Source of the DNA: a virus
Length of the DNA stretch: 64,000 nucleotides
Virus record (IMG/VR): IMGVR_UViG_3300035698_004085
Span: 1 to 64,000 of that record
Reading direction: 5' to 3' (one strand)
The notes under the pieces are model-generated. The model was not told where the DNA came from, did no database searches, and saw nothing but the letters and a program-made list of their open reading frames with translations. Position 1 is the stretch's first letter; every line of letters starts with the position of its first letter. This document shows positions 1-63,156 of this stretch, piece by piece. The position numbers and the translations under genes are program-made.

Positions 1-1809
1 AATCGTCCATCTTTTATTGACGAAGCTGTCTTGCATCACGATTACCGCGCCGGACATTTCTCAGATCTCTCAGGAAACGCGAACGATGGCACTCCTACGG
101 CAACTGTTTGGCAAGGGGGCGGGGTAAAGTTTCCAGAAATTACATCTAAAATTGTGGTTTCTGATTCCCCGGAATTAAGCCTTAATGAGGGAACTGTAGT
201 TGCATTTGGGGACCTTAAACCACCAGACAGTTTTCAGCATATCCTAAATAAAAATCAGGTAGGGGTTACGCATTTTGCGTGGTACATATGGGCTACTGGT
301 GTCAGTATTCAGACTGGAACTGATAGTACTCTTGCTATTGATCTTACAGGTAAAAGCTACTTAGCTACTAATTTTAAAGATGCGGAACAACCTATTACAT
401 ATCTTGATGGGGTACTACACGGAACACATAGCGCAGTAACAGCAATAACAGCCGACTCGGAACCACTTAACATTGGGGCATTTTACACCTCAGCAGCTAA
501 TCTGCGATCAGAAGCTCTTGGTGCCATCCTAATCTTCCCGCGAAAACTAACAGCCACGGAACACGCTGAGCTTTTCGCATACCTGTCCAATCTCCAATGG
601 CCTTCAATAGTTGACGCAAGAAGCGACGCGAGTTTGACGATTGATCCTGACGAAACAGGCTTGGCAGGCGCTTGGAATATGCGCCCCGAGAGCGGGGTTC
701 TGGTGGATGTTTCGGCTAACGGGAACGATGGAACGATTGACCAAGGCGTGAGCCACTCTCACACGCTCCTTGGCGACTCAATGGTGCTTGAATCTGGCAA
801 GAAGATTGACTGTGGAAATGTCGGCAATTTGAAGACTGTTTCGTTTTGGGCAAGCCTTGAAACTACTACCGAAGAGTTGTTGAAGCTGAGTGCATCGCAT
901 TCAATAGAAGCTGCGGCTGGCACCCTAACAGCAACCGGTTTCACAGCGCCCACAATATATGTTGATGGAGTAGCGACGACCACGATCACGGCACTTGTAA
1001 AGCACATGATTACGGTAACGACTGACACAACGGTTGCAGCGTCAGCGTTTGAAATGGGTGGTCCAACACCAGCACTCGCCGGATCAATCATCGGCACTGT
1101 GAAGGCTTTGGATTACAACCCTGGAACCGACTGGATCGATGCCGAATACGCCAAGGGTCAAGACGCAGGCTGGCACACTGATTTCGGCGTTCACGAATCT
1201 GTTGCGGCGGTTGCATCTGGATTCCTTGAGAACAGCCCGTTCGTGGTTGACAGCGGGTCGTTTAAGATTTCCTCAGAAGAAATTGATGGAGAACTTTGCA
1301 AGGTCATCGAATGCGTGACGACTGGGATTTGTTACGTTCCGACTTCACTATTCGGACAGACGCCAACGGAAGCGGCTTTTGGTGAATGGCAATTTTGGGT
1401 GAACAAAACGGGTGCAGCAACCGAAACAAGAATATTATTTGTTTCAGACGTTGTTGGTGGAGAAACCGCAGCAGGACAGGATGGTTATTCATTTCAGATA
1501 AACGGAGCAGAACGGCTTGCGGTCCTAGAAATGACTGCAGGCGGTCTTTCAAATAAATATTTGTCTGATGTGTCAGAGGTGTCAACAGCAACTTGGTATA
1601 GGTTTACAATAACGCGCACGTCGGAGGGGGTTTGTTCACTTTATACCAACGGTGTTTTAGCTGGAAATGCAATTGATGGAAGTAACCCGTTTACAGATAC
1701 GACTGTAGTGGACTCAAAGTATCTTATTCTCGAATTAGACGCAGGAGACAAAATCGCCTACTCAGACATCGTTGGCGGGCACTCAATTCAGAAACGACCA
1801 ATAGCTTAA
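1..1809 (+). CDS. LamG/concanavalin A-like lectin domain virion protein (5'-partial)
   Basis: Frame is open from position 1. Two LamG-type openings (DLSGNANDGT; LAGAWNM...DVSANGNDGT), YLDG/YVDG strands and a PRKLTATE ending; third lectin-like domain at the C-terminus. Confidence 0.7.
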   Translation, partial: NRPSFIDEAVLHHDYRAGHFSDLSGNANDGTPTATVWQGGGVKFPEITSKIVVSDSPELSLNEGTVVAFGDLKPPDSFQHILNKNQVGVTHFAWYIWATGVSIQTGTDSTLAIDLTGKSYLATNFKDAEQPITYLDGVLHGTHSAVTAITADSEPLNIGAFYTSAANLRSEALGAILIFPRKLTATEHAELFAYLSNLQWPSIVDARSDASLTIDPDETGLAGAWNMRPESGVLVDVSANGNDGTIDQGVSHSHTLLGDSMVLESGKKIDCGNVGNLKTVSFWASLETTTEELLKLSASHSIEAAAGTLTATGFTAPTIYVDGVATTTITALVKHMITVTTDTTVAASAFEMGGPTPALAGSIIGTVKALDYNPGTDWIDAEYAKGQDAGWHTDFGVHESVAAVASGFLENSPFVVDSGSFKISSEEIDGELCKVIECVTTGICYVPTSLFGQTPTEAAFGEWQFWVNKTGAATETRILFVSDVVGGETAAGQDGYSFQINGAERLAVLEMTAGGLSNKYLSDVSEVSTATWYRFTITRTSEGVCSLYTNGVLAGNAIDGSNPFTDTTVVDSKYLILELDAGDKIAYSDIVGGHSIQKRPIA

Positions 1810-1839
1810 ATCTCTTACAAATATAAGTTATCACTCCTA

Positions 1840-1871
1840 TTTAAATTCTCCAACAATTTATATGCTAAAAT
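1840..1871 (+). promoter_or_regulatory. Phage-specific promoter motif, copy 1 (TTTAAA-N4-CCAAC-N11-TAAAAT)
   Basis: Same bipartite motif and spacing as four other intergenic copies; degenerate tandem copy at 1805-1818. Confidence 0.6.
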
Positions 1872-1961
1872 TTGAAATACAGTTTTGCTATCCATACTTT
1901 TACTTCGTAAAATGGATTAATAAGACAACAAAGCACTTAGAGTATATTATAGATTGTACAA

Positions 1962-2447
1962 ATGAAAAAGGAGTTTTTAAAAATGTTAACCAATTTTGAT
2001 ATGGCAACGCTTTATAAGTTCATCACCTCTGACAAAATAGATAAATTAGATCTATCCATCTCAGCTTTCCTAGCACTAAAAACAAATTTAGAAAGAATTA
2101 AAGGCGTTTACAAAGCTCTTGGAGAAACAGAGCAAAAATACTTAATGCCCTCAGAAGAGCTAGAAGAATACAATAAAGAGAAACAAGAGCTTATAAAAAC
2201 CTATAAAGATAATGACGTAGTTAACGAAGTCACTAAAGAAGATGCGTTAAAACTACTAATAGAAAACAATAAAGAAGTTCTAGAAAAAAGAGTAGAAGCT
2301 CAAAAAGAATGGGTAGAAGTACTCAACTCTGACTCAAGCGTAGAACTAAAAATGATTAAGCACTCTGACATAGACTGGTCAGAGACTAAACTTAAAGCAC
2401 AAGACTTTAATGCGCTATTCATAATGATCGAAGATGAAGAAGAATAA
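1962..2447 (+). CDS. Hypothetical helical protein (DUF1617-like)
   Basis: 161 aa K/E-rich helical ORF ending ...LFIMIEDEEE; resembles small proteins found near phage fibre genes. Confidence 0.4.
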   Translation: MKKEFLKMLTNFDMATLYKFITSDKIDKLDLSISAFLALKTNLERIKGVYKALGETEQKYLMPSEELEEYNKEKQELIKTYKDNDVVNEVTKEDALKLLIENNKEVLEKRVEAQKEWVEVLNSDSSVELKMIKHSDIDWSETKLKAQDFNALFIMIEDEEE

Positions 2448-2457
2448 GGACAACTAA

Positions 2458-5400
2458 ATGAAAACCGGTGACGTAAGTACTCTTCTTAACAGAAACAAAA
2501 TGACAGCTAGACGAGATGCTATGAAACCTAAGCTAATCTCATCTGACCCATCAGCCCATAATAGGAAGATGGCTGCTGAAGTCCTTCCAAAAGGATCTAC
2601 CTTATCTCCATCTATTCATAAGAGCGGAGTAAACGGACCCTGGGGAGGACAAGCAACTATGTCAACGGGTGGTGGAGCTTCACAATTCCACACACAGCGT
2701 CCTTTGATGCCTGAGTATGATTGTTTCATAGAGGGAACTCTTGTTAATCTTCCTAACGGTGAGTCTAAGAAGATTGAAGACATCGTAATAGGCGATAAGG
2801 TTGTTGATCGTAAGGGTATGGTTCAAACAGTAGAACGTCAATGGAGTTCTGGAACTCCTGATACCCTCGTTGAGATAACTACGTTAAGTGGTCTTAAGTT
2901 TAAAACCACTGACAGACACAACTGGCCAGTTTGGGCTTGGGCAAGAAAGTGTCAATGCGGTTGTGGAGAAGATGTAAAAACGTTAGGTAAGCTGTATCTA
3001 CGTGATCATTACAAGACAGGGATGGCTACTGGTGGAGTTTCTATTGTAGGTGACCCAAAAAATCCTATGTCTAATAGGAAGCTCTTACCTGAGGGTTATG
3101 ACCCTATTAAAAAAATGAGGGCAGACGAAATCAGGAAGGGTGATTTCTTGATGATGCCTCGGTCCTTTGAGAAGATAAAGACAGCTACTTCTCTGGATAA
3201 AGCGAGGTTGCTTGGTTATTATATAGCTGAAGGTAACATTGATTATCACAGAACCGGAGAGATATACTCAGCTACTTGGACTTTTGGTATTCATGAAGAG
3301 TATACGTTTGCAAAGGACGTTCATGATATTTTAGAAAGCATGGGCATAGCTTCTAGCGTAGTCTCAGTCAAAAAGAATAAGAATGTTTGTAGAGTTAGGC
3401 TAACGAATGATAGAGGTAAGAACCGGAAGACTGTTGATGAACTTATTGAGTGGCTTGCGGCAAACGGTGGGCAAATTGCTGCTCATAAAAAATGGAGTAC
3501 AGAAGTATTAGGGTGGTCTTTAGATCTTAAGCTTGAGATGCTTAAGGGTATGATAAGAGGAGACGGTTGTCAACAATGGAGATCAACAAAAGGAGATAAG
3601 GGCGGTAACTCTTTTATTGTGTTATACACTACGGTGTCTAAGACGCTGGCTCATCAGGTTCAGCTAGGCTTAACCCAGCTAGGATTTCCTTCTTGCATAT
3701 CTACTTGGCATAGTGAAAAACGGATTATGAATGGTGGAAAGCTTGTATCTTGTGCTGAGAGATACGACGTTAGGGTTATTTCTGCATATTCAAAGGCTTT
3801 AGCCGACATAATTTGGGGATCTGCATCTAAGTCTGCTGAGCTAGAGAGTAAGAACGCTATCAGGGCTACTTGCATGATGGATGATGATTTTGTTTATTAT
3901 CCAGTTAAAGCAGTTAATATAGTTGACAACGATAGACCGGTATACAACCTTACTGTATCTGGAGATCATTCTTATCTAGTTTCTAACATAGCTACTTATA
4001 ACAGTCCTGACCGTCAATTTTATCCAGAAGATAGGCTCCAAGCTAATGCTTATTGGCGAATGTTTCACAAGTATGACCCAATCTTTGGTACAGCAATTGA
4101 CATGTATGCGTCAATGATGACTTCTGACTTCGACATTGTATTATCGAATGAAGAAGACTCCTCTATTAAAAATCAGTTAATGGACATGTGCGACCAAGTT
4201 AACTTCTTAGAGAAATTTCAACAACTAATCAAGGAATATCTAGTCATAGGTGAGTCTTTCCCCCATAACTTCTTCGATTCTGAAAGAGGTATTTGGAACT
4301 ACATCGCTTTCCACAATCCTGATTATATAGAAGTGCAAGACTCTCCCATTATTGACATGGAGCCGATAATTAACTTCTTGCCAGACGACCAATTAAGAGA
4401 GCTAATATCTTCGAATACTCCAGAGTCTCATGAAATTAGGAAAAAGCTTCCCTCTGAATTTGTTTCAAAAGTATTAGCCAGACAAAAGATAAGGCTTTCG
4501 CCCCTAAACTGTTCATTTGTTGCGCGAAAGTTACATGCCTATGACGAACGTGGAACATCTTTGGCGAGTAGGTTGTGGAGGATCTTTGCAGTTGAAGACG
4601 CAGTATATAGCTCTACATTAGCTCATTTTAGAAGGGCTAGCAGTCCCTTAAAGGTGTTGAAGCTAGGTGACCCGTCAACAGGATGGATTCCGTCTCCTGA
4701 TACAGAGCAAGAATTACTTCGTATGGTGACAGCTGCTGAGTTAGATCCTCAGTGTTTTGTTCCAGAGACTCCAATTACTCAGTCAGATGGCATTACCAAG
4801 TGTATTGGCGACTTAGAGTTAGGTGATGAGCTTCTAGATAAGAATGGTCTAAAATGCACCGTAGAGGCTCTTCAAGATGAGTATACGACTGAGTTAGTTA
4901 ATTTGAGGGTTGAGGGTTCTCCTGATGACCTTATTTGTACTACTACCCACAAGTGGTCTATCTGGGGTATTGACCGTGAGTATACAGGAGTTAGGTCAAA
5001 CCTAAGAGTAAATAGTATAAGATCTTATATGGAAAAGAGGGGTTTATCCCTCATTCAGAAGGTTACAGCAGACAAAATAAAATCTGGTGATTATCTTATG
5101 GTTCCTAGGTCTTTTGAGTCTTTTTCTCCTTCTGACTTTAACAAAGATAAAGCTAGGTTGCTAGGGTATTATGCTGCTGAGGGAAGCGTTTCTGATGTTA
5201 AGGGTACCTCACGTAAAGAAGGTCGTTTTTCTCTTTCTATTAAGGAGAGGTCTACTCTAGCTGTAGATATTTGTAATATTGTATATGATATTTGCGGTAA
5301 ACGACCTAAAATATACGATAGACCCCAAACTAATAGCTGCGAAGTTGCTCTAAGTAACCTAGCGTTTGCTGAGTTGCTAGATTGGTTGGAGCTTCATGTT

Positions 5401-7329
5401 GGTAGAGGTAGCCATACTAAAGTTTTGTCTCCTGTTTTGATGGGGCTTCCTTTAGAATATAAGAAGGAGTTTATAAAGGGGTACTTATTGGGGGACGGTT
5501 GCTCACATGATGAGTCTAAAAAAAGGGGTAATCGAGGGTCTGTTCATGTTGATGTAGTTTCTGCTTCAAGAAAGATGATAGAGCAAGTGAAGTTAATTTT
5601 TGCTCAGTTAGGCTACTATGCTGGGTATTGTAAAACGGCTGTTTCTTTAACTTCTTTATTTGGTGCTGGTAATCCTATATTTACTCTTAGAATATCTGGC
5701 AGGAAGGCTTGTGACTTAGCTTATGAGGTTTGGGGTAGGAATCATACGTATGCTAAGCGTGATTGTACCCATTGGTGGGTTGATGATGATTTTATTTATG
5801 TGAGAATTAAGTCAGTAAAAAATGTTGATTGTTCTGACGAACCTCAAAAAGTTATAAATATGACCGTAAGTGGCGACCACTCATATTTAGCAAATCATTT
5901 TGGAACTTATAATTCATGGATTGTTTATAATTATGGTGTTAATTTCGAGCAGTGGGGGAACGGAGAAAGAGCTGTCACTCTTTCTCGTGAGAATGATACT
6001 ATTGAAAAGGTTAAGCTATTAGCTCTAGGAATGTCTAAATCGTTTGTCGGCGGAGAGGTGACCTACAGTTGTTCTACACCCGATACAAAAGTTCTTAAAG
6101 CTAGTGGTCAATACCTTAACATTGACGAAATAAAGGTTGGGGATAAAGTTGTAGACCGTTTTGGTAATCCCCAAGAGGTTACCAATTTCTTTGAATATCA
6201 TTCTCCTGACAAACTTATTAAAATTACTACATGTAATAATAAAGAGTTGTTATTAACGGATAATCATAATCTCCCAATTATGCGTGGCAGCGGTGACATA
6301 TTAAAACTTCAGTCAAAGGATGTTGAGGTTGGTGATTATCTTATGATGCCTCGTTGTTTGGTGAAGTCTTTATCAGAAGAGGACATGGGTAAGTGTACGT
6401 TAACTCTTTATGAGAATAGTGTTTGTTCTACAAAGGTTGAGAGTGAGAGTCTTGCTCTACATTCTGAGTCATTATTAACTCAAGCTGGTTATGCGAGCTT
6501 TACTGAAAAGGTTGGGGATACTTATTATGTTTATCGTGATGATGACGCTCCTCATATTATTAAAGATGATGACTATTTATATTTGCCAGTTAAGTCTGTA
6601 GAAGTAATTGATACGGATAAAGAAAAGTATCCTTATGTTTATAGTTTAACGGTTGCAAATACCAATAGCTATACACTTAATAACTTGGCTTCGTATAATT
6701 CCGCCAAATCTGGATTACAGGTATTTCTTAGAAGACTTCTAAATATGAGACAATTTTTTGAGTCATCTTGGATAATGCCAAAGTTTTTCCAACCTATAAT
6801 TGAGATTAACGATTGGCAAAAGGGAACTCCAGCGGAAGTCAATCACAGGATAAAGATTAAGAGGACTGCTCAGGAGGCTGATGCGCTTGGGTTGTTGATT
6901 AAGCCTAAGTTGATTTGGCGCAATAAGTTAGATCCGAAGGTAGATTCAGAGACTCTTCAAGCTTATTTACAGTTGAAGAATTTAGGGTTTATTGTTTCGC
7001 CAGATTCGGTTGGCGCAGCTGTTTCCTTAGATTGGCGAGATGAGTTAGCAAAGGATGCTAAGGCGTTTAAGGAGCGTGAGGAGATTCTTACTAAGCAACT
7101 TGGTCCAGAGCTTAAGTCAAAGTATGACGCAAAGAACCAAGAGGGGGCTGGAGCCAAGCCTCCTGGGGCAGCAGGTAGTGGTGCGGCTCCTCCTGGGGCA
7201 GCTGGTGGTAAGAAGCCCCCTGGTGGTCAACCGGGCGTTAGCAGTCCTCCTGGGAGTTCTCCTGAGGAGAGTGGTTCTGGTCCTTCAGATGAGTCGATTG
7301 ATTCGCCTGGAAGTATGGGAGGGATGTAG
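2458..7329 (+). CDS. Portal protein precursor with three inteins (about 599 aa after splicing)
   Basis: Exteins carry portal-like motifs (YDPIFGTAID, EYLVIGE, RGTSLASR, PLKVLKLGD) and a G/P/S-rich tail; lies upstream of MuF-like, protease, scaffold and capsid genes. Confidence 0.8.
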   Translation: MKTGDVSTLLNRNKMTARRDAMKPKLISSDPSAHNRKMAAEVLPKGSTLSPSIHKSGVNGPWGGQATMSTGGGASQFHTQRPLMPEYDCFIEGTLVNLPNGESKKIEDIVIGDKVVDRKGMVQTVERQWSSGTPDTLVEITTLSGLKFKTTDRHNWPVWAWARKCQCGCGEDVKTLGKLYLRDHYKTGMATGGVSIVGDPKNPMSNRKLLPEGYDPIKKMRADEIRKGDFLMMPRSFEKIKTATSLDKARLLGYYIAEGNIDYHRTGEIYSATWTFGIHEEYTFAKDVHDILESMGIASSVVSVKKNKNVCRVRLTNDRGKNRKTVDELIEWLAANGGQIAAHKKWSTEVLGWSLDLKLEMLKGMIRGDGCQQWRSTKGDKGGNSFIVLYTTVSKTLAHQVQLGLTQLGFPSCISTWHSEKRIMNGGKLVSCAERYDVRVISAYSKALADIIWGSASKSAELESKNAIRATCMMDDDFVYYPVKAVNIVDNDRPVYNLTVSGDHSYLVSNIATYNSPDRQFYPEDRLQANAYWRMFHKYDPIFGTAIDMYASMMTSDFDIVLSNEEDSSIKNQLMDMCDQVNFLEKFQQLIKEYLVIGESFPHNFFDSERGIWNYIAFHNPDYIEVQDSPIIDMEPIINFLPDDQLRELISSNTPESHEIRKKLPSEFVSKVLARQKIRLSPLNCSFVARKLHAYDERGTSLASRLWRIFAVEDAVYSSTLAHFRRASSPLKVLKLGDPSTGWIPSPDTEQELLRMVTAAELDPQCFVPETPITQSDGITKCIGDLELGDELLDKNGLKCTVEALQDEYTTELVNLRVEGSPDDLICTTTHKWSIWGIDREYTGVRSNLRVNSIRSYMEKRGLSLIQKVTADKIKSGDYLMVPRSFESFSPSDFNKDKARLLGYYAAEGSVSDVKGTSRKEGRFSLSIKERSTLAVDICNIVYDICGKRPKIYDRPQTNSCEVALSNLAFAELLDWLELHVGRGSHTKVLSPVLMGLPLEYKKEFIKGYLLGDGCSHDESKKRGNRGSVHVDVVSASRKMIEQVKLIFAQLGYYAGYCKTAVSLTSLFGAGNPIFTLRISGRKACDLAYEVWGRNHTYAKRDCTHWWVDDDFIYVRIKSVKNVDCSDEPQKVINMTVSGDHSYLANHFGTYNSWIVYNYGVNFEQWGNGERAVTLSRENDTIEKVKLLALGMSKSFVGGEVTYSCSTPDTKVLKASGQYLNIDEIKVGDKVVDRFGNPQEVTNFFEYHSPDKLIKITTCNNKELLLTDNHNLPIMRGSGDILKLQSKDVEVGDYLMMPRCLVKSLSEEDMGKCTLTLYENSVCSTKVESESLALHSESLLTQAGYASFTEKVGDTYYVYRDDDAPHIIKDDDYLYLPVKSVEVIDTDKEKYPYVYSLTVANTNSYTLNNLASYNSAKSGLQVFLRRLLNMRQFFESSWIMPKFFQPIIEINDWQKGTPAEVNHRIKIKRTAQEADALGLLIKPKLIWRNKLDPKVDSETLQAYLQLKNLGFIVSPDSVGAAVSLDWRDELAKDAKAFKEREEILTKQLGPELKSKYDAKNQEGAGAKPPGAAGSGAAPPGAAGGKKPPGGQPGVSSPPGSSPEESGSGPSDESIDSPGSMGGM
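2722..4002 (+). mobile_element. Intein 1 in portal with LAGLIDADG homing endonuclease (427 aa)
   Basis: Starts CFIEGTLV; block B TTDRH; LAGLIDADG-like LLGYYIAEG and MLKGMIRGDG; ends HSYLVSNIATYN followed by Ser. Confidence 0.9.
4753..5913 (+). mobile_element. Intein 2 in portal with LAGLIDADG homing endonuclease (387 aa)
   Basis: Starts CFVPETPI; block B CTTTH; LLGYYAAEG and FIKGYLLGDG; ends HSYLANHFGTYN followed by Ser. Confidence 0.9.
6070..6699 (+). mobile_element. Intein 3 in portal, mini-intein with endonuclease remnant (210 aa)
   Basis: Starts CSTPDTKV; block B LTDNH; no LAGLIDADG helices; ends NSYTLNNLASYN followed by Ser. Confidence 0.85.
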
Positions 7330-7341
7330 TATATTACTATT

Positions 7342-8388: not shown

Positions 8389-8389
8389 G

Positions 8390-8503: not shown

Positions 8504-8505
8504 TT

Positions 8506-8823: not shown

Positions 8824-8857
8824 TTCTTTCATTTTTCTAAAACTAATATAGTTTAGC

Positions 8858-54868: not shown

Positions 54869-55064
54869 AGATAAAAGCTATGATGAGGGATATGACGATG
54901 GTTACGATGAGGGGCAAAAAGAGTTCTTTAATGATAACACTGGCGGCGTAATTGGTTTGGCTGAGCTGTTAAAAGAGTATGTCGGCTTAAGCTCATATAA
55001 GTTAGATGAACTAGCTGAAGAATTGTTTATTGCTTTTGACGGAAAACTAGGAAAGCTTAAATAG
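54861..55064 (+). CDS. Small hypothetical protein (YDEGY repeats)
   Basis: 67 aa; SD GGAGG; 8 nt overlap with the previous gene. Confidence 0.6.
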   Translation: MNRDKSYDEGYDDGYDEGQKEFFNDNTGGVIGLAELLKEYVGLSSYKLDELAEELFIAFDGKLGKLK

Positions 55065-57938
55065 ATGATTGCACTAGAATCGCATGGAGATAAATTTGTG
55101 GTATCTTTAGATAAGAACCATGAGTATTATACTCGTGCGTATATAGCAATGAGGTCTTTGTTAACTGTCCAAGAATTGCCCAACGATAAATGGGCAATGG
55201 GCTATGATGATCTAGTTTCGTTTAAGAGCAAATTAGATTCTCTTGGCTTAGTTGACGGACGAACGATGAATGAAAGCGCTTTACAACTTGCTTCTCAATA
55301 TCAAGCTCTTCAAAAACGAAATGAAGATATTAAAAATGGAGTGCATAACGAGTATATAGAGTCTTTGATAAAAGGTAAGTTGAAGACAACTCCTTATAAG
55401 GATCAAGTAACAGGAATCTCCTATTTAGTCAATAATAGAAGAGCGGGAATGTTCTCAAGCATGGGAATTGGGAAAGCTCAGCCTCTTGATGCTAAAATTC
55501 TTACTCCTACGGGTTGGAAGCTTATGGGGCAGATGAAGGTCAAGGATAGAGTTATAAACTCAAAGGGTAAGATCTCTAGGGTAACGGGAGTATTTCCTCA
55601 AGGAATTAAAGCTATTTATAGAGTTACTTTTACGGATGGGTCAAGTACGGAATGCTGTGAAGACCATTTGTGGAAGGTTCAGACTCCTAGAGAGAGGGCG
55701 AGTGGGTATCCTTCGCGTATCATTCCGCTTAAAGACTTTAAAGATGATTTGGTTTATGGTAGTGGTAATAGAAAGCGCTTTATTCCTATAGTTAACCCTG
55801 TAGATTTTGTTGAGAAACAGAAATTACCTTTACACCCTTACGTTTTAGGGTGCTTACTGGGAGATGGAGGGTTGTCTACTGAAAGTAGGGTGGGGTTTAC
55901 TTCTATAGACCGTGAGATTATTGATGCTATTAATAGTTTTCTTCCAGATAACCACTCTTTAAAGTTTAGGAAGGGTACTGAGTGTGATTATGCGATTACT
56001 CGTGACGATGTTAGGAAAAAGGGTGGTAATTTTGTTTTATCTGCTTTGCGGCTCTTATCTTTGCACGGAGTAAAGTCTGATACAAAGTTCATACCTGATA
56101 TGTATAAATTTAGTTCAGTTTCTTCTAGGATGTCTTTGTTGCAAGGATTGTTAGACACAGACGGAAGTGTTTCTGTTAATTCTTGTATTGAGTATACTTC
56201 AGTGTCTGAGAGACTGGCAGATGGTGTGTCTTTTCTTGTTAGATCTCTGGGCGGAAAAGCTACTAAGAATTCTAGGATTCCTACGTTTACGTATAAGGGC
56301 ATAAAGAAGAAGAGGGCTTACCGCATACATATATCGATGGCTGGGTATTTTCCGCCGTTTAAGCTTTCCCGTAAGGCTGAGGCATGGAGTCCGAGAACTA
56401 AGTATCCACCAGCTAGAGCTTTTAAATCTGTTGAATTTGTGGGTAGAAAAGAAGCTCAGTGTATTTCAGTAGATGCAAAGGATCATTTGTATGTTACTGA
56501 TGACTTCATTTTGACTCATAATACGATTCAGGCTTTGGGATCTGTTGTTTCTTTAAGCGATGAAGTTAAAAAGACTTTGGTAATTGCTCCAAAAAGCGTG
56601 CTATCTGGGTTTGCTAATGAGATTGAAAAGCATACGTATCTCAGCTCTATTACTATTCCTCCAGGAAGAAAGCCTAGCTTAAAGTTCTTACAGGATAATA
56701 AGCACGGTAATTGGGATATGCTTTTAGTACACCCTGAAAACCTTATTGGATCGTCTAAAAGAGAAACGTATGGAGACATTACAAAACTTTTAAAGACTAT
56801 GCGTTTTGATATGGTAATTGTAGATGAGTTCCACCAATATAAGAATCTTTCAGCCAAGAGAACTAAATGCGTTTTATCATTATTAGCAGAACTCCGAGAT
56901 AATAAAAAACAATTACCAAGAGCTGTATTAATGACTGGTACTCCTGTTTCTGAATCTCCATTAAATGCCTATACTGTCTTACATATTTTAAGTACAGATG
57001 TTTTACCGCACGTTGATAGGTTTGAGAATTACTTTACGATTAAGGATTCTTTTGATATTCGGCAGAAGAATAAGAGGACTGGAAGATTTCAGACAATAAC
57101 TGTTCAGAAGGTAAAAGGGTATAAAAATCTAGGCGAACTCAAGCAACGGCTAGAAAGAGTCTCTATCAGGCGCACTAAGGATGATATGGAGGGCTTCCCA
57201 GACCAAGTGTTTACTACTAGGTCAGTAGAGCTTAAAGGCAATCAGAAGGCTCTTTATAAGACGGTATGCGGAGAAGTAGTTGAGTCTTTATCTCAGTCGA
57301 GTAAGATCAATCTCACCAATTTCTTTTCTTCAGCTAGTGCGGTTAGGCTTAGGCAGCTTTTAAACCATCCTCAATTTTTGGATGAAAAAGGAACTTCTGC
57401 TAAGTATGATGAAATTGATATTATTTTAGAAGAGCTTTTTTCAGATCCTGAACAGAAAGTTGTGTTATGGACTGAATATAGAAAAGCGGTTGATCTTATT
57501 TATGATCGGTGGAACGAGAAATATGGAGTAGTTAAGCTCTATGGTGGAGTTGACATTACTAACGAACTAGCCAATTCTTTTGAGTCAGATGGTGGTCCAA
57601 GGATTGCGGCTTCGATTGCCGCCAAAGTAGGGACAGGGGTTGACTTTTTAGCAAGGGCAAGAACTGCTATTTATATTGATAGACCTTATTCGTTTACGCA
57701 GTATAAACAGTCAATTGACCGGATTCATAGGAGAGTAAAAACGACTGGAGAACTTTCTAAGCTAGACAGGATAAGATCTCAACCAGCGACTATTATTTAT
57801 CTTGACGTTCCTGACTCAATAGACGAGCTGGTTAAGGTAAAGTTATACGGTAAGCAAGAAGTGGCTGACGCTTTAACGATTGAAGATAGTAAGTTAGTAA
57901 CTATGGGTAAGTCTGCTCTATTAAGGTATTTGAGGTAA
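55065..57938 (+). CDS. SNF2-family helicase with intein (about 608 aa after splicing)
   Basis: MGIGK|T Walker A split by an intein; VIAPKS, VDEFH, MTGTP, RRTK, LRQ..NHP and QSIDRIHR motifs. Confidence 0.9.
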   Translation: MIALESHGDKFVVSLDKNHEYYTRAYIAMRSLLTVQELPNDKWAMGYDDLVSFKSKLDSLGLVDGRTMNESALQLASQYQALQKRNEDIKNGVHNEYIESLIKGKLKTTPYKDQVTGISYLVNNRRAGMFSSMGIGKAQPLDAKILTPTGWKLMGQMKVKDRVINSKGKISRVTGVFPQGIKAIYRVTFTDGSSTECCEDHLWKVQTPRERASGYPSRIIPLKDFKDDLVYGSGNRKRFIPIVNPVDFVEKQKLPLHPYVLGCLLGDGGLSTESRVGFTSIDREIIDAINSFLPDNHSLKFRKGTECDYAITRDDVRKKGGNFVLSALRLLSLHGVKSDTKFIPDMYKFSSVSSRMSLLQGLLDTDGSVSVNSCIEYTSVSERLADGVSFLVRSLGGKATKNSRIPTFTYKGIKKKRAYRIHISMAGYFPPFKLSRKAEAWSPRTKYPPARAFKSVEFVGRKEAQCISVDAKDHLYVTDDFILTHNTIQALGSVVSLSDEVKKTLVIAPKSVLSGFANEIEKHTYLSSITIPPGRKPSLKFLQDNKHGNWDMLLVHPENLIGSSKRETYGDITKLLKTMRFDMVIVDEFHQYKNLSAKRTKCVLSLLAELRDNKKQLPRAVLMTGTPVSESPLNAYTVLHILSTDVLPHVDRFENYFTIKDSFDIRQKNKRTGRFQTITVQKVKGYKNLGELKQRLERVSIRRTKDDMEGFPDQVFTTRSVELKGNQKALYKTVCGEVVESLSQSSKINLTNFFSSASAVRLRQLLNHPQFLDEKGTSAKYDEIDIILEELFSDPEQKVVLWTEYRKAVDLIYDRWNEKYGVVKLYGGVDITNELANSFESDGGPRIAASIAAKVGTGVDFLARARTAIYIDRPYSFTQYKQSIDRIHRRVKTTGELSKLDRIRSQPATIIYLDVPDSIDELVKVKLYGKQEVADALTIEDSKLVTMGKSALLRYLR
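55476..56522 (+). mobile_element. Class 3 (Ala1, WCT) intein with LAGLIDADG endonuclease (349 aa)
   Basis: Starts AQPLDAKILTPTGW; block B DHLW; block F QCISV; ends LTHN followed by Thr; LGCLLGDG and LQGLLDTDG. Confidence 0.9.
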
Positions 57939-57941
57939 TAC

Positions 57942-59027
57942 ATGGTAGATATAACGATGTTGTTGGGTAAGTCTAGCGCCGCCGATATTAATAGAAAGCT
58001 AACAAGAGACGAGGAGAACTATCTTATCAGAATATCAAGGAAGTTTTGGAGCTATTTTGGGTATACGGGATTGCTAGACCCTTGGCATGATGAGCCTAGA
58101 CCTTTTTTGAAAAGTTCTTCTAAAAAACTTTCTGAAACCCTTAAGTTTTCAGAAGTGGAAGATATAAGCTTGTCAGCCTACTGTATAATTATGTTGACTT
58201 TGGCTCCCTATACAAGGTTTAGCACTGTTGGTCAATGGTTTTCTAATTCTGTTGATGGAACTTGGGTAAAAAAACTGAGAAAGCATGCTGGTTCTATGGA
58301 TATGATGGATGAGCTGTCTTATTTGCTTTTGATTTTTATGGAGCTTCAGATTGAGCATAGTGGTAAGGCTTCATTATCCAGGAGCAGTATTGTAAAAGAT
58401 AGATATGCAGGAAAAGTAAAAGGAAAGGCTAAAACGGAGAAGTATTTAGAAGCTTATCACGGAATGGTTGATAGGGTTTCTCAACTGCAGAGTAAGGATA
58501 TTGATCCTGAGTTATGGCTTAGGGCAAAGTTTAAGAAAGCGATTGAGGCTTTTCCTGATAAGCAGGTTCCTCTTAGAACAATAACTAATTTGAACGGACT
58601 AGAGCCAAACATTCAACAGCTTCAGGCGCAAGCTCATGATCCTTGGAGAGAGCTTAGAGGGTTGTTAGGCTTGTCTTTTGAGTGTGAGTTTCCTGATGGT
58701 TACATTCCTAAGGGCTGGGGCGTTTCTTCGGACGATAGAGACGATGTTAAGAGAATAACTAAGATTTTGGGAGATGGGTATTACTATTATGAGGATGGGA
58801 CGCAACGTAGAGGAAAGCGTCATTATGCTTCAAATAGTTATTTTGTGATTAAGTGTGACCCTGAGAACTTTCATTTATTTAGAGATAAGTGGTTTGATCC
58901 GAGGTATTTGGCTGAGTCTCCAACTTGGATGGAGTACAATACTTACGCATCAAAACCTGGATTGTGGGATGAAAAAGGTGCATCAACAAACGGACGCGGT
59001 AAGTCGGTTAAATGGAGGAAGAAATAA
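57942..59027 (+). CDS. Hypothetical protein in replication cluster
   Basis: 361 aa ORF, no motif recognised. Confidence 0.6.
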   Translation: MVDITMLLGKSSAADINRKLTRDEENYLIRISRKFWSYFGYTGLLDPWHDEPRPFLKSSSKKLSETLKFSEVEDISLSAYCIIMLTLAPYTRFSTVGQWFSNSVDGTWVKKLRKHAGSMDMMDELSYLLLIFMELQIEHSGKASLSRSSIVKDRYAGKVKGKAKTEKYLEAYHGMVDRVSQLQSKDIDPELWLRAKFKKAIEAFPDKQVPLRTITNLNGLEPNIQQLQAQAHDPWRELRGLLGLSFECEFPDGYIPKGWGVSSDDRDDVKRITKILGDGYYYYEDGTQRRGKRHYASNSYFVIKCDPENFHLFRDKWFDPRYLAESPTWMEYNTYASKPGLWDEKGASTNGRGKSVKWRKK

Positions 59028-59710
59028 TGGATGATGCTAAAAAGCATGAAAGAGTTTTAGTAATTGGAGAAGATCTTATGTACGGGTTTGGAAAGACTCT
59101 TGAGGCTGCTTTTCCTTTTTCAAAAGTTTGGGAGAGTGAGCAAGATTTACAGTGGCTAGACTATTGTTTGGGGCAAGCTTGTTTTATGCCAAGAGGGTTG
59201 GTTGAGGAGAATCCTAAGTACAAACAGCTTATTCCTTATATCGTCGTAAAGTCTGGTAACAAGATTTTGTCTTATGAGCGTGCTGGGGCAGAAGAAAGAC
59301 TGTCTGGTAAAGTTTCTGTAGGAATTGGAGGTCATGTTAACCTTGAAGACTTTTTTGAAGGTAGAAGTCGGTTTGCTCCAGAAGGAAATCTGTACATTTT
59401 AGAGAATGCTGCGGATCGTGAAATTAATGAGGAGCTTGGACTTGACCAGCTTTCTAGATCTTCTCAACTTAGGTGTATGGCGGGACTTAGCAATCCTAGC
59501 GGAATTCTGTTTGTTGGTGATGGTGACATGGTTAATGCTGTACATCTTGGAGTAGTCTATCAAGTGAGTCTGGGCGCTGAGGTTGAGTCAGACTGGTTAG
59601 CAATTAGAGATGAAGGTATTAATACTGTTTGGAGAACTAAAGAAGAGTTGTTGGAAATTGATGATCGACTTGAAACTTGGTCTAGTGTAGTGGTGAGAGA
59701 ATGTCTTTAA
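59027..59710 (+). CDS. NUDIX-family phosphoesterase (COG4112-like)
   Basis: E.NP.YKQLIPY, E.RL..K.S.GIGGHVN, REINEE, VHLG and LETWS motifs; TAATG-coupled start. Confidence 0.8.
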   Translation: MDDAKKHERVLVIGEDLMYGFGKTLEAAFPFSKVWESEQDLQWLDYCLGQACFMPRGLVEENPKYKQLIPYIVVKSGNKILSYERAGAEERLSGKVSVGIGGHVNLEDFFEGRSRFAPEGNLYILENAADREINEELGLDQLSRSSQLRCMAGLSNPSGILFVGDGDMVNAVHLGVVYQVSLGAEVESDWLAIRDEGINTVWRTKEELLEIDDRLETWSSVVVRECL

Positions 59711-60465
59711 GAGGTGAGATTATAGGTTCTTGCGAGCTAGGCTGTATTGATGGTTTTGTTAAGGGGTTGCACCCTTGCGAGTGCATGAAGAAGTTTAGAG
59801 CGTATAACCGAATGGTTTCTACAGGTTTTAGCAAGGGCACTTTAGACCTTATCAACTCTGAGAATTATCAGGATCTTGTGTATGAGTCTGGTGAGGACTT
59901 TGTTAAATTCTATTTAGCTGATTTGTACATGACTGAGGAAAGGGGTTTGTCTTTATTTGTTTATTCTAGGGATAGAGGGCGCGGTAAAACTACCCTGGCT
60001 CATCAGATCATTTTTGAGGCTGTAAAGTTGTTTTCTGAGGACGAGAATTATAAGTCAACTCGTACTTATGCTTTTGAGCATGTGGATTCTTTCTTATCTA
60101 GTTTTTCAACTCAGAAGAAAAAGAATGAGGTTTCTCCATTATGGCAAAGTACTTGGTATGTTTTAGACGATTTAGGACATGAGGACCGAACGGCTAAGTG
60201 GAAAAAAGGAATTCTGTTAGATTCTATACAACGAATGCTGCATTATCGGAGAGACTTGGGATTGCCTACTATAATAACTTCAAATTACGCTCCAGGTGAC
60301 TTGTCGTCTCTCTATGAAAGAGAAGTTGATTCTCTGTTGGAAATACAAGTTGATGGAGTTCTTGGTGGTGAAAGATTTAGATCTGTTCATGTAGGTGGAG
60401 CAGAAGATTTTAGACTTCAAACGCAGAATAGCGCGTGGAGCGGGATGGAGAAAACTAATGATTAA
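59701..60465 (+). CDS. DnaC/IstB-like AAA+ helicase loader
   Basis: N-terminal Cys cluster, GRGKTT, VLDDLG, PTIITSN. Confidence 0.75.
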   Translation: MSLRGEIIGSCELGCIDGFVKGLHPCECMKKFRAYNRMVSTGFSKGTLDLINSENYQDLVYESGEDFVKFYLADLYMTEERGLSLFVYSRDRGRGKTTLAHQIIFEAVKLFSEDENYKSTRTYAFEHVDSFLSSFSTQKKKNEVSPLWQSTWYVLDDLGHEDRTAKWKKGILLDSIQRMLHYRRDLGLPTIITSNYAPGDLSSLYEREVDSLLEIQVDGVLGGERFRSVHVGGAEDFRLQTQNSAWSGMEKTND

Positions 60466-60823
60466 AGCTTATATTTGTCATCCATATGCTAATGACCCAA
60501 AGGGGAATATTGAAAAGGTTACAGAGATTGTAAAAGAGTTTGCAGCTCTGTCTATTGACCAGCTTAAGAATGGTACTATAACTAGCGCTGAGACTCATCT
60601 TAACCGAGAGTTTGTTGTCGTACCTATCGTTCCTTTATTTGCTTTTCCTCCGTTCATGAGTGAAGACGGCGATGTTGATAGAGAGATTGCTTTAGCATTT
60701 TGCCTAGCTCTTCTTGAAGGATGTGATGAAATTTGGGTATGCTCCAAAGACATTACTTCAGGAATGCAACTAGAGATTAGTAAAGCGGCTGAATGGGGCA
60801 TTAAAATAGTGTGGAAGTCTTAA
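60458..60823 (+). CDS. Nucleoside 2-deoxyribosyltransferase-like (DUF4406-type) protein
   Basis: YICHPY...N, LL..CDEIWV and S.GM..EI..A...GI motifs; ATG at 60458. Confidence 0.7.
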   Translation: MIKAYICHPYANDPKGNIEKVTEIVKEFAALSIDQLKNGTITSAETHLNREFVVVPIVPLFAFPPFMSEDGDVDREIALAFCLALLEGCDEIWVCSKDITSGMQLEISKAAEWGIKIVWKS

Positions 60824-62170
60824 ATGAATCTTAGCGTAAACGTAGAGGCTGAATTCTTAGCAGCCATTTTACAAGGGCACTCTTTAGATTCTGATCTTCT
60901 TTCAAAAGTAGATTTTGGATACTTTTCTGTGGATTCTTATAAATGGCTGGTTAAACAGCTCAAGGCTCGTAAATGGCAACCAATCGCTTATGACTACCTT
61001 GACCAGATTTTGATAGATAACGTTAAAGAGGCTGAGAAACAGACGTTATACAGACAACAAATATATGCGTTATACCAAAAAGAGATAACGTTTTTAAAAG
61101 ATGCTGAAATCAAATTTAAGGCTTTTACTGCTTATTCTTGCATTAAGTCAGCTATTAAGGACTCTTTTGAAGCTCACGAGAAGTCAGGTAGAACAGACTA
61201 TCTAGTAAAAGACATTATGGAGGCTACTAGAGAAGCTCATAGCTTAATTCACGAAGATGGCTTAAAGGTTATTGACTATGCTGAAGACTACGATTCTAGG
61301 ATGTCTAAAAGAGTGAGCGAGCGTGACAACCCTGATTTATCTCCAGTTGTCTTAACCGGGATTAAAGGACTTGACGATCAGTTTAAGATCAAGCCTGGGA
61401 TGATTGTTGACTTCTTAGCGCCTTTCAAGCGGTATAAGTCTATTATCCTAAATAATATGGGCTTTTCATCTTTGTTACAGGGGTTTAACGTTGTTCATGT
61501 TATTTATGAGAACACTATTGCTCTAACAACTGATAGGTATGACTCATTATTCTCAGAGCTTTCCTTCGATAGACTTGTTGGAATGTATTTGTCTCCAGAG
61601 GAGAAGAAAAGTCTAGATAGTCAAATGCATTGGATAGGAAAGTGGGACGCTCGATTAAAGGTTATCAAATGCACTGCTAATAAAACGAATTTAGAGCAAG
61701 TAGCTGAGAAGATAGAGAAGTTACAAGTTACTGACAACTTTGTTCCAAACGTTATTGTTCTTGACTATCTAAATCTTGTAGCTCCTGTCCTCCATTCTAT
61801 TAAAGAAGAGCGTTTAAGACAGGCAGCTGCTGCTTGGGACGCTAAAGCGCTAATAGACCATTTCAATGTTCCTATGTTCACGGCTACTCAAGCTAAAATG
61901 GAAGCTAATAAAGTTGACAGAATGGACAGTACCCACAGAGGAAAAGCCATTGATATTTCTCAAGCGGTGAACTTGTCTATTGCTCTTGATCAAACCAAAG
62001 AAGAGCGTGCTGAAGGTCGATTAGTGCTCAGTCCTCATATCTACCGTGAAGGAAAAATTGTAAATTCTGAAATAGTAGTGAACACTGCGTTAGAACGCAT
62101 GGCGATTTCAAGGAGCTATAAGCCCTTGTGGGACAGGGCATTTGAGAGGTACGGGTACCTAACTAATTAA
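60824..62170 (+). CDS. dnaB: Replicative DnaB-like helicase
   Basis: TGIKGLD, atypical Walker A APFKRYKS, YEN, VLDYLNL, TATQ. Confidence 0.75.
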   Translation: MNLSVNVEAEFLAAILQGHSLDSDLLSKVDFGYFSVDSYKWLVKQLKARKWQPIAYDYLDQILIDNVKEAEKQTLYRQQIYALYQKEITFLKDAEIKFKAFTAYSCIKSAIKDSFEAHEKSGRTDYLVKDIMEATREAHSLIHEDGLKVIDYAEDYDSRMSKRVSERDNPDLSPVVLTGIKGLDDQFKIKPGMIVDFLAPFKRYKSIILNNMGFSSLLQGFNVVHVIYENTIALTTDRYDSLFSELSFDRLVGMYLSPEEKKSLDSQMHWIGKWDARLKVIKCTANKTNLEQVAEKIEKLQVTDNFVPNVIVLDYLNLVAPVLHSIKEERLRQAAAAWDAKALIDHFNVPMFTATQAKMEANKVDRMDSTHRGKAIDISQAVNLSIALDQTKEERAEGRLVLSPHIYREGKIVNSEIVVNTALERMAISRSYKPLWDRAFERYGYLTN

Positions 62171-62175
62171 TTATC

Positions 62176-62204
62176 TTGACATTTTAGATTGTTTATGTTA
62201 TAAG
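62176..62204 (+). promoter_or_regulatory. Sigma70-type promoter (TTGACA-N17-TATAAG)
   Basis: Perfect -35 box, extended TG, near-consensus -10; only about 10 nt to the primase ATG, with no SD (possibly a near-leaderless mRNA). Confidence 0.55.
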
Positions 62205-62214
62205 TGTATGAATT

Positions 62215-63156
62215 ATGATTGAAAAGACGAGCTATATTTTGAGTAAGTTTCCTAACAAAGATCCCAACAGTAGAGGACAGATCCATACGACTTGCCCTTT
62301 CCATGACGATAATACGTCTTCATTTTCAATTAACGTAGAAGAAGGCGTGTTCATTTGTGGTTCTAGTCACTGCGGTATAAGAGGAGCTTTTCCCCTATTT
62401 TATAAATTAATGGAGAATATTGATTCTTGGGTTGAGGTTTTTGAGGATCTTAAGAGTAAAGACCCAAATTATGACCTTAATGAATTCTTTTCAGCTGATA
62501 AAGGACCACGAGTTAGCTCAATAATTATTAATCCTTTTCCAGAGCCTCCCGGTATAGAGCCTTTAGGCGATATTCAATTTCTGCAAGATAGAGGAATTAC
62601 TCCTGAAGTTTGTCAGCGTTATGGCTTAGTCTATGGTAGAGAAGGTCGGCATTCTGGAATTAGCATACGTTCTTCCATCGTTGCTCCTGTATGGGACGTT
62701 GACAGTGTTTATAAAACGTTCCAGGTTCGCTATTTAAGTCCTAATTCACCTACAAGATGGCTTAATCCTGTCGGTAGCCCTATTCAGGAGCTTTTATACG
62801 GAGGTCATGCTATAGACCCCTATGCAGAGTTCTTATGGGTTGTAGAGGGTGCTAGCGACGTTTGGAGAATGTCTACTTTTGGGGTGCAGTCTGTTGGTTT
62901 AAATACTAAAGAAGCTTCTCCTTCTCAGTTTAATAAGATTAAAAGCGTATGTGACACTTTTAAGTGTCAGCCTGTAATTTGCTTAGACGGAGATGCGGCT
63001 GTTGCACCTTCAGCTTATGAGATGAGCTGTAACGATATTTTGTACATTAATTTGGCTGCTTTTGGTTTTCAGCCGAAGATAGTAACTTTAAATTATAGTG
63101 AAGACCCTGGTTCACTTTCTTATGACAGATTTTTAGAGCTGCAGGAGACTTTGTAG
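62215..63156 (+). CDS. dnaG: DNA primase (CHC2 zinc finger + TOPRIM)
   Basis: CPFHDD..SF......F.C...C, L.DRGI, VVEG.SD, CLDGD, EDPG. Confidence 0.85.
   Translation: MIEKTSYILSKFPNKDPNSRGQIHTTCPFHDDNTSSFSINVEEGVFICGSSHCGIRGAFPLFYKLMENIDSWVEVFEDLKSKDPNYDLNEFFSADKGPRVSSIIINPFPEPPGIEPLGDIQFLQDRGITPEVCQRYGLVYGREGRHSGISIRSSIVAPVWDVDSVYKTFQVRYLSPNSPTRWLNPVGSPIQELLYGGHAIDPYAEFLWVVEGASDVWRMSTFGVQSVGLNTKEASPSQFNKIKSVCDTFKCQPVICLDGDAAVAPSAYEMSCNDILYINLAAFGFQPKIVTLNYSEDPGSLSYDRFLELQETL

Follow-up and report, generated by a model that had tools for sequence, protein, structure and literature searches.

Does a phage whose structural-gene module has no TGA stop do without this stop codon, or read it in another way? 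RF1 reads UAA and UAG, and UGA is read by RF2 only. We analysed a window of 64,000 nucleotides (positions 1-64000), the first 64 kb of a phage genome of 175,002 bp with 40.4% GC. Nearly all genes are on one strand and use code 11, with an ORF coverage under this code of 92-93% of the genome. The phage is tailed and uncultivated, its genome is complete, and the window is its structural-gene module. The features referred to below are:

1..64000, + strand: 56 protein-coding ORFs, virion structural module (stops 39 TAA, 17 TAG)
~165.6 kb through the arbitrary contig start to ~106.9 kb: TGA-poor block of 113 genes, contains the window
2458..7329, + strand: 1623-aa protein with portal domain, TAG stop (PHROG phrog_16240 portal protein, E = 1.8e-58)
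7342..8388, + strand: structural-module gene, TAA stop; the orthologue in relative G006 ends in TGA
12498..13706, + strand: major capsid protein, TAA stop (PHROG phrog_2522, E = 2e-57)
27871..27875, + strand: TAATG stop/start coupling junction; same type at 35489, 38873 and 59027
43337..43344, + strand: ATGnnTAA start/stop overlap; same type at 54861-54868 and 60458-60465
63157..64000, + strand: 5' part of the last window gene, with its TAA stop at 64179, past the window
Genome 64189-65346 (L001:189-1346), + strand: first TGA-ended gene, starting 189 bp beyond the window

Stop codons inside the window

Counting non-nested plus-strand ORFs of at least 55 aa, we found 39 TAA, 17 TAG and no TGA stops (56 ORFs), close to the 39, 18 and 0 (57 genes) of an earlier sequence-only reading. 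All plus-strand ORFs of this length that do end in TGA are nested out of frame in longer genes. Two ORFs in gaps also end in TGA, at 1862-1999 (45 aa) and 53338-53430 (30 aa), and neither has a ribosome-binding site.

As for gene coupling, ORFs overlap by 1 nt at 27873, 35489 and 38873 and by 8 nt at 43337-43344, while matches to TAATG or ATGnnTAA/TAG were found at 27873, 38873, 59027, 43344, 54868 and 60465. ORF ends fit these junctions and there are 0 ATGA overlaps in the window, so the earlier description of coupling by these motifs, and never by ATGA, holds. It was also right that TGA is not a sense codon in the window, since code 11 leaves ORFs of 1623, 1515 and 1239 aa uninterrupted. The chance of 0/57 TGA stops, first put at about 1e-4 with an assumed TGA share of 15%, was recomputed as 9.5e-5, but it is 0.004 at the genome's own rate of 21/228 (9.2%).

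A general depletion of the trinucleotide was considered and rejected. TGA occurs 58.6 times per 1000 in frame +2 of the window, against 22.3 for TAG, and the intergenic values are 20.7 and 20.2 per 1000. TGA is not depleted off frame or between genes, and its absence is therefore specific to stop positions.

TGA as a stop codon in the complete genome

Genome-wide, TGA ends 21 of 228 plus-strand ORFs, against 0 of the 54-56 counted in the window. Outside the window it makes up 12% of stops (21/174 ORFs). The claim that TGA is “not used at all” fails as a generalisation with the gene at 64189-65346. Its 385-aa product has homologues of 372-383 aa that cover 98-100% of the query, and the orthologues in two relatives, L166 and L167, are TGA-ended as well, in the form ...LLIKA-x-TGA-GG. 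The TGAGG at these ends is at once the ribosome-binding site for the gene that follows. The Tpt1/KptA gene, also TGA-ended, is full length (Pfam positions 3-176 of 177, E = 3.4e-43).

Coding scores are positive for all TGA-ended ORFs. An ATGA context surrounds 11 of the 21 TGA stops, with eight being true ATGA overlaps with the start of the next ORF. Comparison of sequences points firmly to TGA as the terminator of bona fide genes at natural C-termini in this phage. The translation of one TGA-ended gene (116711-117166) shows an HNH-like CxxCH motif of the kind that mobile endonucleases typically have.

The sequence-only reading had taken the gene set to be RF2-independent, and had named an ordinary TGA frequency in the rest of the genome as the finding that would speak against this. 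The 21/174 TGA stops outside the window, with 17% in the 107-165.5 kb region, are such a finding. RF2 independence is refuted because the rest of the genome ends conserved genes in TGA. Part of that interpretation stands: the absence of TGA is non-random and specific with respect to TAG, and a cause linked to UGA and RF2 termination is therefore reasonable.

Two stop-codon regimes in one genome

The best circular split into two blocks places 20 TGA stops among 115 genes in 106,999-165,541 and 1 among 113 elsewhere (permutation p ~0.007, from a boundary-corrected scan). The TGA-poor block holds structural and replication genes (113), and the TGA-using block at 107-165.5 kb holds accessory genes (115 genes, ~17% TGA).

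Gene length was rejected as the cause. The contrast between blocks persists among short genes (0/45 vs 18/109 with TGA, p = 0.0018), and within the TGA-using block there is no length effect (long genes 2/19, short genes 18/109, p = 0.74). Non-core genes differ between blocks too (1/48 vs 19/116, p = 0.0085). The block contrast is thus not explained by gene length or core status alone.

TAA has a share of 69% in each block (p = 1.0). The TAG:TGA ratio is 31:1 in the TGA-poor block and 18:20 in the TGA-using block (p = 3.5e-6), meaning that TAG, not TAA, replaces TGA. This leaves 69% TAA, 30% TAG and 1% TGA in the window and core block. Codon bias is stronger in the TGA-poor block (ENC 46.2 vs 49.6). 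The blocks also differ in GC skew and in third-position composition, with third-position C at 0.115 in the TGA-poor and 0.17 in the TGA-using block, and third-position GC at 0.33 vs 0.36-0.38. In each block the TAA:TAG ratio tracks the general third-position A:G composition.

Search for reassignment of TGA

Three origins had been offered for the missing TGA stops: (a) a host with reassigned UGA, (b) a codon-vacated stage before reassignment, and (c) sabotage of host genes through RF2. The check suggested for the rest of the genome, a search for a UCA-anticodon tRNA and for RF1/RF2 homologues, gave none. No UCA-anticodon tRNA was detected in the genome with ARAGORN or Rfam, even with relaxed ARAGORN tRNA-like elements included. 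The tRNAs found are tRNA-Asn(GTT), Leu(CAA), Gln(TTG) and Ile(TAT). PF00472, PF03462 and PF00579 (RF-1, PCRF and TrpRS) had 0 matches in the complete genome, with control genomes positive. Nor did the genome yield a release-factor gene, a suppressor tRNA or a candidate inhibitor of RF2.

No credible in-frame TGA was found. A scan with TGA as sense codon returned a single orphan candidate of 68 codons (119180-119386), a zinc-ribbon-like frame in which readthrough of TGA would complete a four-cysteine pattern. This frame has no homologues, so the residue at its TGA cannot be checked. In-frame continuations after TGA at 108762, 120198 and 124557 were rejected, being separate small genes with their own ATG, either in a TGA-AAA-ATG arrangement or with their own ribosome-binding site. 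Across ~52,000 codons TGA has not accumulated at sense positions, and the absence of in-frame TGA here is a property of any code-11 genome.

In sum, options (a), for which neither a UCA tRNA, an RF-1, PCRF or TrpRS domain nor a credible in-frame TGA was seen, and (c) have no positive evidence. Option (b) is a published idea that fits loosely.

Relatives and GC content

The comparison covers the few relatives available. In this family, capsid proteins are 70-79% identical across 35-61% GC and 7-62% TGA. TGA makes up ~60% of stops in G001 and G002 (59% GC, capsid 72% identical) and 7-9% in AT-rich relatives. Most orthologue pairs have TAA here and TGA in G001 (18/32). A split similar to ours is present in G006 (35% GC, capsid 71% identical), with TGA at 2/61 stops in the structural region vs 16/80 elsewhere (p = 0.004). 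TGA is nevertheless tolerated in the structural module of close kin, because the G006 orthologue of 7342..8388 ends in TGA.

Around the capsid gene, at least four distinct AT-rich relatives have 0 TGA in ~31 stops (38 with duplicate contigs counted), and TAA and TAG replace each other there. In the four closest AT-rich relatives the capsid orthologue stops at TAG. In L139 (42.5% GC) it stops at TGA, and this relative has 4/9 TGA stops, the capsid gene included. Furthermore, TGA reaches 25% in G004 (40.7% GC), and in the replication module 5/27 in L166 (36.5% GC) and 9/22 in L167 (42% GC). Among relatives, an equal or lower GC does not prevent free use of TGA, and therefore GC alone does not explain 1/113.

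Avoidance of TGA by core genes in general was rejected as a rule, given no core/accessory contrast in G001 (60% vs 63%) and G004 (27% vs 25%). As for recoding, ORF coverage in code 11 is 92-97% in G001 to G006, by which no TGA-recoded close relative was recognised among them. No UCA-anticodon tRNA was found in G001 to G005.

A DNA polymerase query gave matches all at or below 28% identity. A look-up of identical proteins gave no match. The metagenome bins in which capsid relatives occur carry assignments to Archaeoglobales, Actinomycetes and Flavobacteriaceae and are uninformative on the host. Weak host leads come from the Atlas, where Tpt1 has neighbours in Fusobacteriota and Bacillota and ribonucleotide reductase has neighbours in viruses and Actinomycetota.

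Explanations of the bias

We consider the pattern to be, probably, an uneven quantitative stop-codon bias in a standard-code AT-rich phage, and neither a change of code nor RF2 independence. TGA is a working but rare stop (~9% of genes), which would have been almost purged from a long-resident core (1/113) while persisting at ~17% in a fast-turnover accessory block of small genes. Two causes may act together, a balance between TAA and TGA that shifts with GC content across the family, and selection against UGA in essential, well-expressed core genes. UGA may be disfavoured there as the leakiest stop, read by RF2 alone, with RF2 reportedly scarce in AT-rich bacteria, while TAA and TAG would interchange freely in core genes. 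In bacteria, the share of TGA grows with GC and that of TAG remains near 20%, TGA is the leakiest stop, and RF2 is low where third-position AT is high (PMC8789281, citing Wei et al. 2016). Against this reading stands the equal TAA share, since a simple preference for the strongest stop should enrich TAA in the core. GC alone is also insufficient, and G001 and G004 show no core/accessory rule.

Gene turnover alone, with a core at a TGA-free mutational equilibrium and an accessory block of young mosaic DNA from TGA-richer phages, agrees with several observations. No close homologues were found for the tested accessory-block proteins, and only 5 of ~115 accessory-block genes have homologues in G001 to G005. 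Third-position composition and GC skew set the block apart, and the CxxCH motif of 116711-117166 belongs to a TGA-ended gene. Turnover is nonetheless an unlikely account, as mutation predicts TGA close to TAG (17.0 vs 21.0 per 1000 in intergenic DNA), not 1:31. At ~0.40, GC in the TGA-ended accessory genes equals that of the genome, so that nothing suggests a recent import from GC-rich donors; the exchange of TAA and TAG without TGA in several AT-rich relatives argues for a sustained filter against TGA. That a rare stop clustered by chance is highly improbable: there are just 21 TGA events and a test of the longest TGA-free run is marginal (p = 0.05), but the boundary-corrected scan, the same split in the independent relative G006 and the TGA-free capsid-adjacent stops of AT-rich relatives all speak against it.

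Other accounts place the cause in termination itself. In the host, UGA may code for an amino acid or fail to terminate (code 25 or 4, no RF2), or the phage may alternate between standard and recoded hosts, so that the core evolved for both codes and TGA-ended accessory genes run to the next TAA or TAG. Such phages are published (PMC10746230), and the 113 core genes have no in-frame TGA and almost no TGA stops. Extensions past the TGA stops are also short, with a median of 9 codons and 8/21 at four codons or fewer, and the orphan frame at 119180-119386 needs readthrough for its four cysteines. That frame has no homologues, though, and other stops have a median extension of 11 codons, giving no significant enrichment of backup stops after TGA (Mann-Whitney p = 0.14-0.18). 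A long stay in a TGA-reading host should have left sense TGA, and none has accumulated. Three lineages keep TGA at the end of the 64189-65346 gene, the eight ATGA overlaps resemble ordinary termination/re-initiation coupling, and relatives with 71-72% identical capsids have TGA as main stop. We regard such hosts as quite improbable. A change during infection is doubtful to a still greater degree. RF2 would be impaired, or UGA readthrough raised, midway, with early accessory genes keeping TGA and middle and late genes needing stops read by RF1; a phage tmRNA would recycle ribosomes stalled at host UGA. The phage does encode a tmRNA (78.7 bits), which G001 to G005 lack, the split is specific to TGA vs TAG with an unchanged TAA share, as expected for reading by RF1 only, and there is an analogy with a published model of late-gene stop recoding (10.1101/2021.08.26.457843). 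Against it, the search of the genome turned up neither a candidate RF2 inhibitor nor a suppressor tRNA or release factor. Baseplate/tail-like genes (150-165 kb, T4 gp9/10-like domain) lie in the TGA-using block and replication genes, usually early or middle, in the TGA-poor block, and therefore the split does not follow the usual timing classes. A sigma-70 promoter scan gave 49 vs 41 ± 7 expected in the core segment and 62 vs 48 ± 7 in the accessory segment, with no clear early/late separation; TAA:TAG follows third-position A:G in each block, and a conserved structural gene of G006 is TGA-ended.

It also seems quite unlikely that the core block of this phage, and of its AT-rich kin, vacated UGA because termination becomes unreliable during translation of these genes, through RF2 interference by the phage aided by its tmRNA or through a weak or absent host RF2. 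If true, the vacated UGA would represent a module-specific stage toward reassignment, before acquisition of a suppressor tRNA.

Comparison with known systems

An RF2-independent phage would have been remarkable, and the whole genome refutes that reading, which is a caution that a codon census of a single window is not extendable to a whole genome. What we describe is a single phage genome in which two stop regimes coexist, 1% vs 17% TGA, with TAG filling the gap; the case is clear and has been replicated.

TGA-depleted standard-code phages have been described as possible recoding precursors (Borges et al., bioRxiv 10.1101/2021.08.26.457843). One of them, an Agate phage, uses TGA in 4/146 genes (2.7%), with 34 TAG and 108 TAA (10.1101/2021.08.26.457843). 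Our phage belongs with these (40.4% GC; TGA 21/228 overall, 1/113 in the core, 0/56 in the window): both are large, low in GC, use the standard code and prefer TAA to TAG with TGA nearly gone, and the proportions in the window and core block are almost equal to those of that Agate phage. Unlike there, the depletion affects one block only, with 17% TGA kept in the accessory block, and no recoded close relative or suppressor tRNA was found here. The genome is a useful data point for the published idea that TGA loss in low-GC phages comes before recoding, and that recoding shows up in structural genes first.

The phages of PMC10746230 (2023) similarly have no in-frame TGA and end most genes in a non-TGA stop. 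They differ in their code-25 host link, and here there is no significant backup-stop enrichment, and TGA is conserved and used in ATGA coupling. In recoded phages (code 4, TGA = Trp; code 15, TAG = Gln) the stop codon also differs between structural genes and the rest. In our case TGA is absent from structural genes, not sense, and no suppressor tRNA, release-factor or TrpRS gene accompanies it.

Finally, the trade-off between TGA and TAA with GC, and a TAG share of ~20-30%, resemble bacterial trends (Ho and Hurst 2021, PMC8789281; Wei, Wang and Xia 2016, PMC4989110). The phage family reproduces this GC trend over 35-61% GC, while the contrast within the genome, 1% vs 17%, is sharper than the gap in third-position GC (0.33 vs 0.36-0.38) suggests.

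Genome layout

The phage record is a single contig of 175,002 bp, with the window as its bases 1-64000, classed by IMG/VR as complete with direct terminal repeats. The exact 121-bp terminal repeat (window 1-121 and genome 174882-175002) is probably an assembly overlap, so the point at which the contig begins is probably arbitrary. The first ORF of the window (1-1809) has no upstream stop inside the contig. The whole genome has 40.4% GC and a plus strand richer in G than in C; ORFs, nearly all on the plus strand, cover about 92% of it. The sole match in a collection of deposited phages was to Virus Rctr197k, over a stretch of 28% identity. The layout is as follows.

1-64000 (the window), virion module, with a 1623-aa protein that has a portal domain (phrog_16240, E = 1.8e-58) and the major capsid protein (phrog_2522, E = 2e-57)
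64-104 kb, replication and nucleotide-metabolism genes (family A DNA polymerase, N6/N4 methylase, class II ribonucleotide reductase), and a weak, sub-threshold AAA_23 match
107-150 kb, about 100 small ORFs, mostly orphan, with four tRNAs and a tmRNA
150-175 kb, large tail- or baseplate-like proteins

Stop codons in the window and beyond it

All 56 non-nested plus-strand ORFs of the window end in TAA (39) or TAG (17) and none in TGA, which bears out the absence of TGA stops noted in a sequence-only reading. The TAATG and ATGnnTAA junctions which it described are also present in the window, with no ATGA overlap. The plus-strand ORFs that do end in TGA there were rejected: some lie out of frame inside longer genes, and the others are tiny gap ORFs that lack a ribosome-binding site. 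Off frame, the TGA trinucleotide is frequent (58.6 per 1000 in frame +2), and between genes it is level with TAG (20.7 vs 20.2 per 1000), so the deficit is specific to stop positions.

The same reading held that TGA is not used at all and that the gene set is independent of RF2, a claim it had tied to TGA use in the rest of the genome. Both statements fail beyond the window: across the whole genome, TGA ends 21 of the 228 plus-strand ORFs that reach 40 aa, and at least 21 genes rely on UGA termination.

The first TGA-ended gene (64189-65346; L001:189-1346 on a later segment of the genome) starts 189 bp beyond the window and has the top coding score among TGA-ended ORFs. Homologues of its 385-aa product have 372-383 aa and cover 98-100% of the length. 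Its orthologues in two relatives (L166:10001-11122 and L167:10001-11122) are 47-53% identical and share the end point (...LLIKA-x), with TGA followed by GG. In all three, TGAGG also serves as ribosome-binding site for the gene downstream, which in both relatives is an HTH_17 gene. This stop, kept in L166 and L167, is the only TGA of a 113-gene TGA-poor block, and is apparently maintained by its second function.

The gene at 115643-116218 encodes a full-length Tpt1/KptA RNA 2'-phosphotransferase (Pfam positions 3-176 of 177, E = 3.4e-43), with the gene's stop forming part of an ATGA overlap. The ATGA context is found at 11 of the 21 TGA stops, these 11 being among the 20 of the accessory block; in 8 of them that ATG is the start codon of the next ORF. 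At 124252-124557 (L004:252-557), a 101-aa protein has a TGA stop followed by the in-frame AAA-ATG of the next gene, and part of the protein resembles the C-terminal domain of ribosomal protein L7/L12 (PF00542, E = 4e-4, below cut-off).

Two stop-codon regimes

When the gene order was treated as a circle and every two-block split was scanned, the best split set apart 106,999-165,541: TGA ends 20 of the 115 genes there and 1 of the other 113 (permutation p about 0.007). A small ORF at 102452-102610, with a good ribosome-binding site, also ends in TGA, so the boundary may be closer to 102 kb. The TAA share is 69% in each block, and TAG:TGA is 31:1 in the TGA-poor block vs 18:20 in the TGA-using one (Fisher p = 3.5e-6). 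Codon bias is stronger in the TGA-poor block (ENC 46.2 vs 49.6; third-position C about 0.115 vs 0.17).

Gene length is ruled out as the cause: the contrast is seen among ORFs shorter than 200 aa (0/45 vs 18/109 TGA, p = 0.0018), and long and short genes are alike within the TGA-using block (2/19 vs 18/109). Conservation alone is also ruled out, as the contrast persists among genes without homologues in relatives (1/48 vs 19/116, p = 0.0085).

Genetic code

The sequence-only reading had suggested a search for code-change machinery, which came back empty: neither a tRNA with a UCA anticodon (ARAGORN, Rfam) nor an RF-1, PCRF or TrpRS domain was found in the complete genome. The RNA set consists of tRNAs Asn-GTT, Leu-CAA, Gln-TTG and Ile-TAT, plus a tmRNA. 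ARAGORN also reports tRNA-like elements at 109.8-112.5 kb, but only when its settings are relaxed and introns permitted; their acceptor stem and T arm are intact, they carry large insertions, and no UCA anticodon occurs among them.

L003:5806-5906, tRNA-like element
L003:5972-6161, tRNA-like element
L003:6901-7052, tRNA-like element
L003:8433-8546, tRNA-like element (Rfam tRNA model, 24 bits, E = 0.21)

A scan with TGA as a sense codon gave no credible added coding sequence, and three apparent continuations past TGA are independent small genes, each with its own start. Two tiny predicted membrane-spanning ORFs of about 36-40 aa, at 108763-108885 (L003:4763-4885) and 120199-120321 (L003:16199-16321), directly follow TGA stops in the same frame and can be mistaken for read-through extensions. 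This leaves a single candidate, a 68-codon cysteine-rich frame at 119180-119386 (L003:15180-15386), with a strong ribosome-binding site upstream and a single in-frame TGA at codon 37. With read-through, the frame gains a complete CX4C...CX5C pattern and finishes in a ATGTATAA overlap with the next gene. No homologues of this frame were found; it could be a small pseudogene, a programmed read-through or a selenocysteine site. Given working TGA stops and no UCA tRNA, release-factor or TrpRS domain or credible TGA-sense coding, the phage reads its genes with code 11 and needs UGA termination for at least 21 of them.

The tmRNA lies at 110209-110566 (L003:6209-6566; Rfam RF00023, 78.7 bits), with a tag given by ARAGORN as DEDYYEMAEAA and ending in TAA; ARAGORN finds none in relatives G001 to G005. 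The tRNA-Ile with anticodon TAT (117879-117949; L003:13879-13949), a type uncommon in bacteria, reads ATA directly. Together, the four tRNAs suggest a supply for A/T-rich codons poorly read by the host.

Stop codons in relatives

Relatives recovered through capsid-protein searches span a wide GC range. In G001 (complete, 188.6 kb) and G002, both 59% GC with capsid proteins 72% identical to that of the phage, TGA makes up about 60% of stops, with core and accessory genes alike (60% vs 63%); 18 of 32 orthologue pairs with G001 have TAA in the phage and TGA in G001. Relatives that are more distant, or similar in GC, also make free use of TGA: G004 (40.7% GC; 25%, the same in core and accessory genes), L139 (42.5% GC; 4/9, capsid gene included), L166 (36.5% GC; 5/27), L167 (42.1% GC; 9/22) and L012 (33.7% GC; 3/24). 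The closest AT-rich contigs come from at least four distinct phages (L132/L133, L134/L140, L135, L136) with capsid proteins 73-79% identical. None of their roughly 31 stops near the capsid gene is TGA, and their orthologous stops switch between TAA and TAG. The syntenic G006 (98 kb, 35% GC) repeats the split, with 2/61 TGA in the structural region vs 16/80 in the rest (p = 0.004); window gene 7342-8388 is orthologous to one of the two TGA-ended genes of that structural region. From this usage, the TGA purge is a trait of the AT-rich sublineage, graded rather than absolute, and not family-wide.

Major capsid proteins are 70-79% identical between the phage and G001, G002, G006 and L014, yet GC goes from 35% to 61%. 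This implies large compositional shifts within one family, probably with host shifts. The metagenome bins in which relatives lie are assigned to Archaeoglobales, Actinomycetes and Flavobacteriaceae.

Interpretation and comparison with known phages

We consider it rather probable that the lineage shifted towards AT, that its core genes lost TGA through mutation pressure and selection against UGA termination, and that the turnover-prone accessory block retained it. Published surveys find that TGA use rises and TAA falls with GC, with TAG steady near 20%, and that TGA is the leakiest stop (PMC8789281); in the same source, RF2 is reported to be low where third-position AT is high. Against mutation pressure plus selection, relatives of equal GC retain TGA and the TAA share of core genes is not elevated.

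Gene turnover alone, with no selection, seems unlikely as the source of the split. Liu et al. describe TGA-avoiding code-11 phages whose hosts may use code 25 (PMC10746230). For the phage here, a host that has reassigned TGA, or a host range spanning two codes, is quite unlikely. It is very improbable that RF2 is impaired during infection, and chance is an extremely poor candidate. Nothing spoke positively for any of these four, and several counts stand against them.

The two-block split that mutation pressure with selection would account for is modestly interesting, and was replicated in one relative. The phage itself is a TGA-depleted standard-code phage, an already known type. Borges et al. 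report a standard-code phage with 4 TGA, 34 TAG and 108 TAA stops, and propose that TGA loss at low GC comes before recoding, the recoding being seen first in structural and lysis genes (10.1101/2021.08.26.457843). Among published pictures, their TGA-depleted standard-code phages are the best fit to the one described here.
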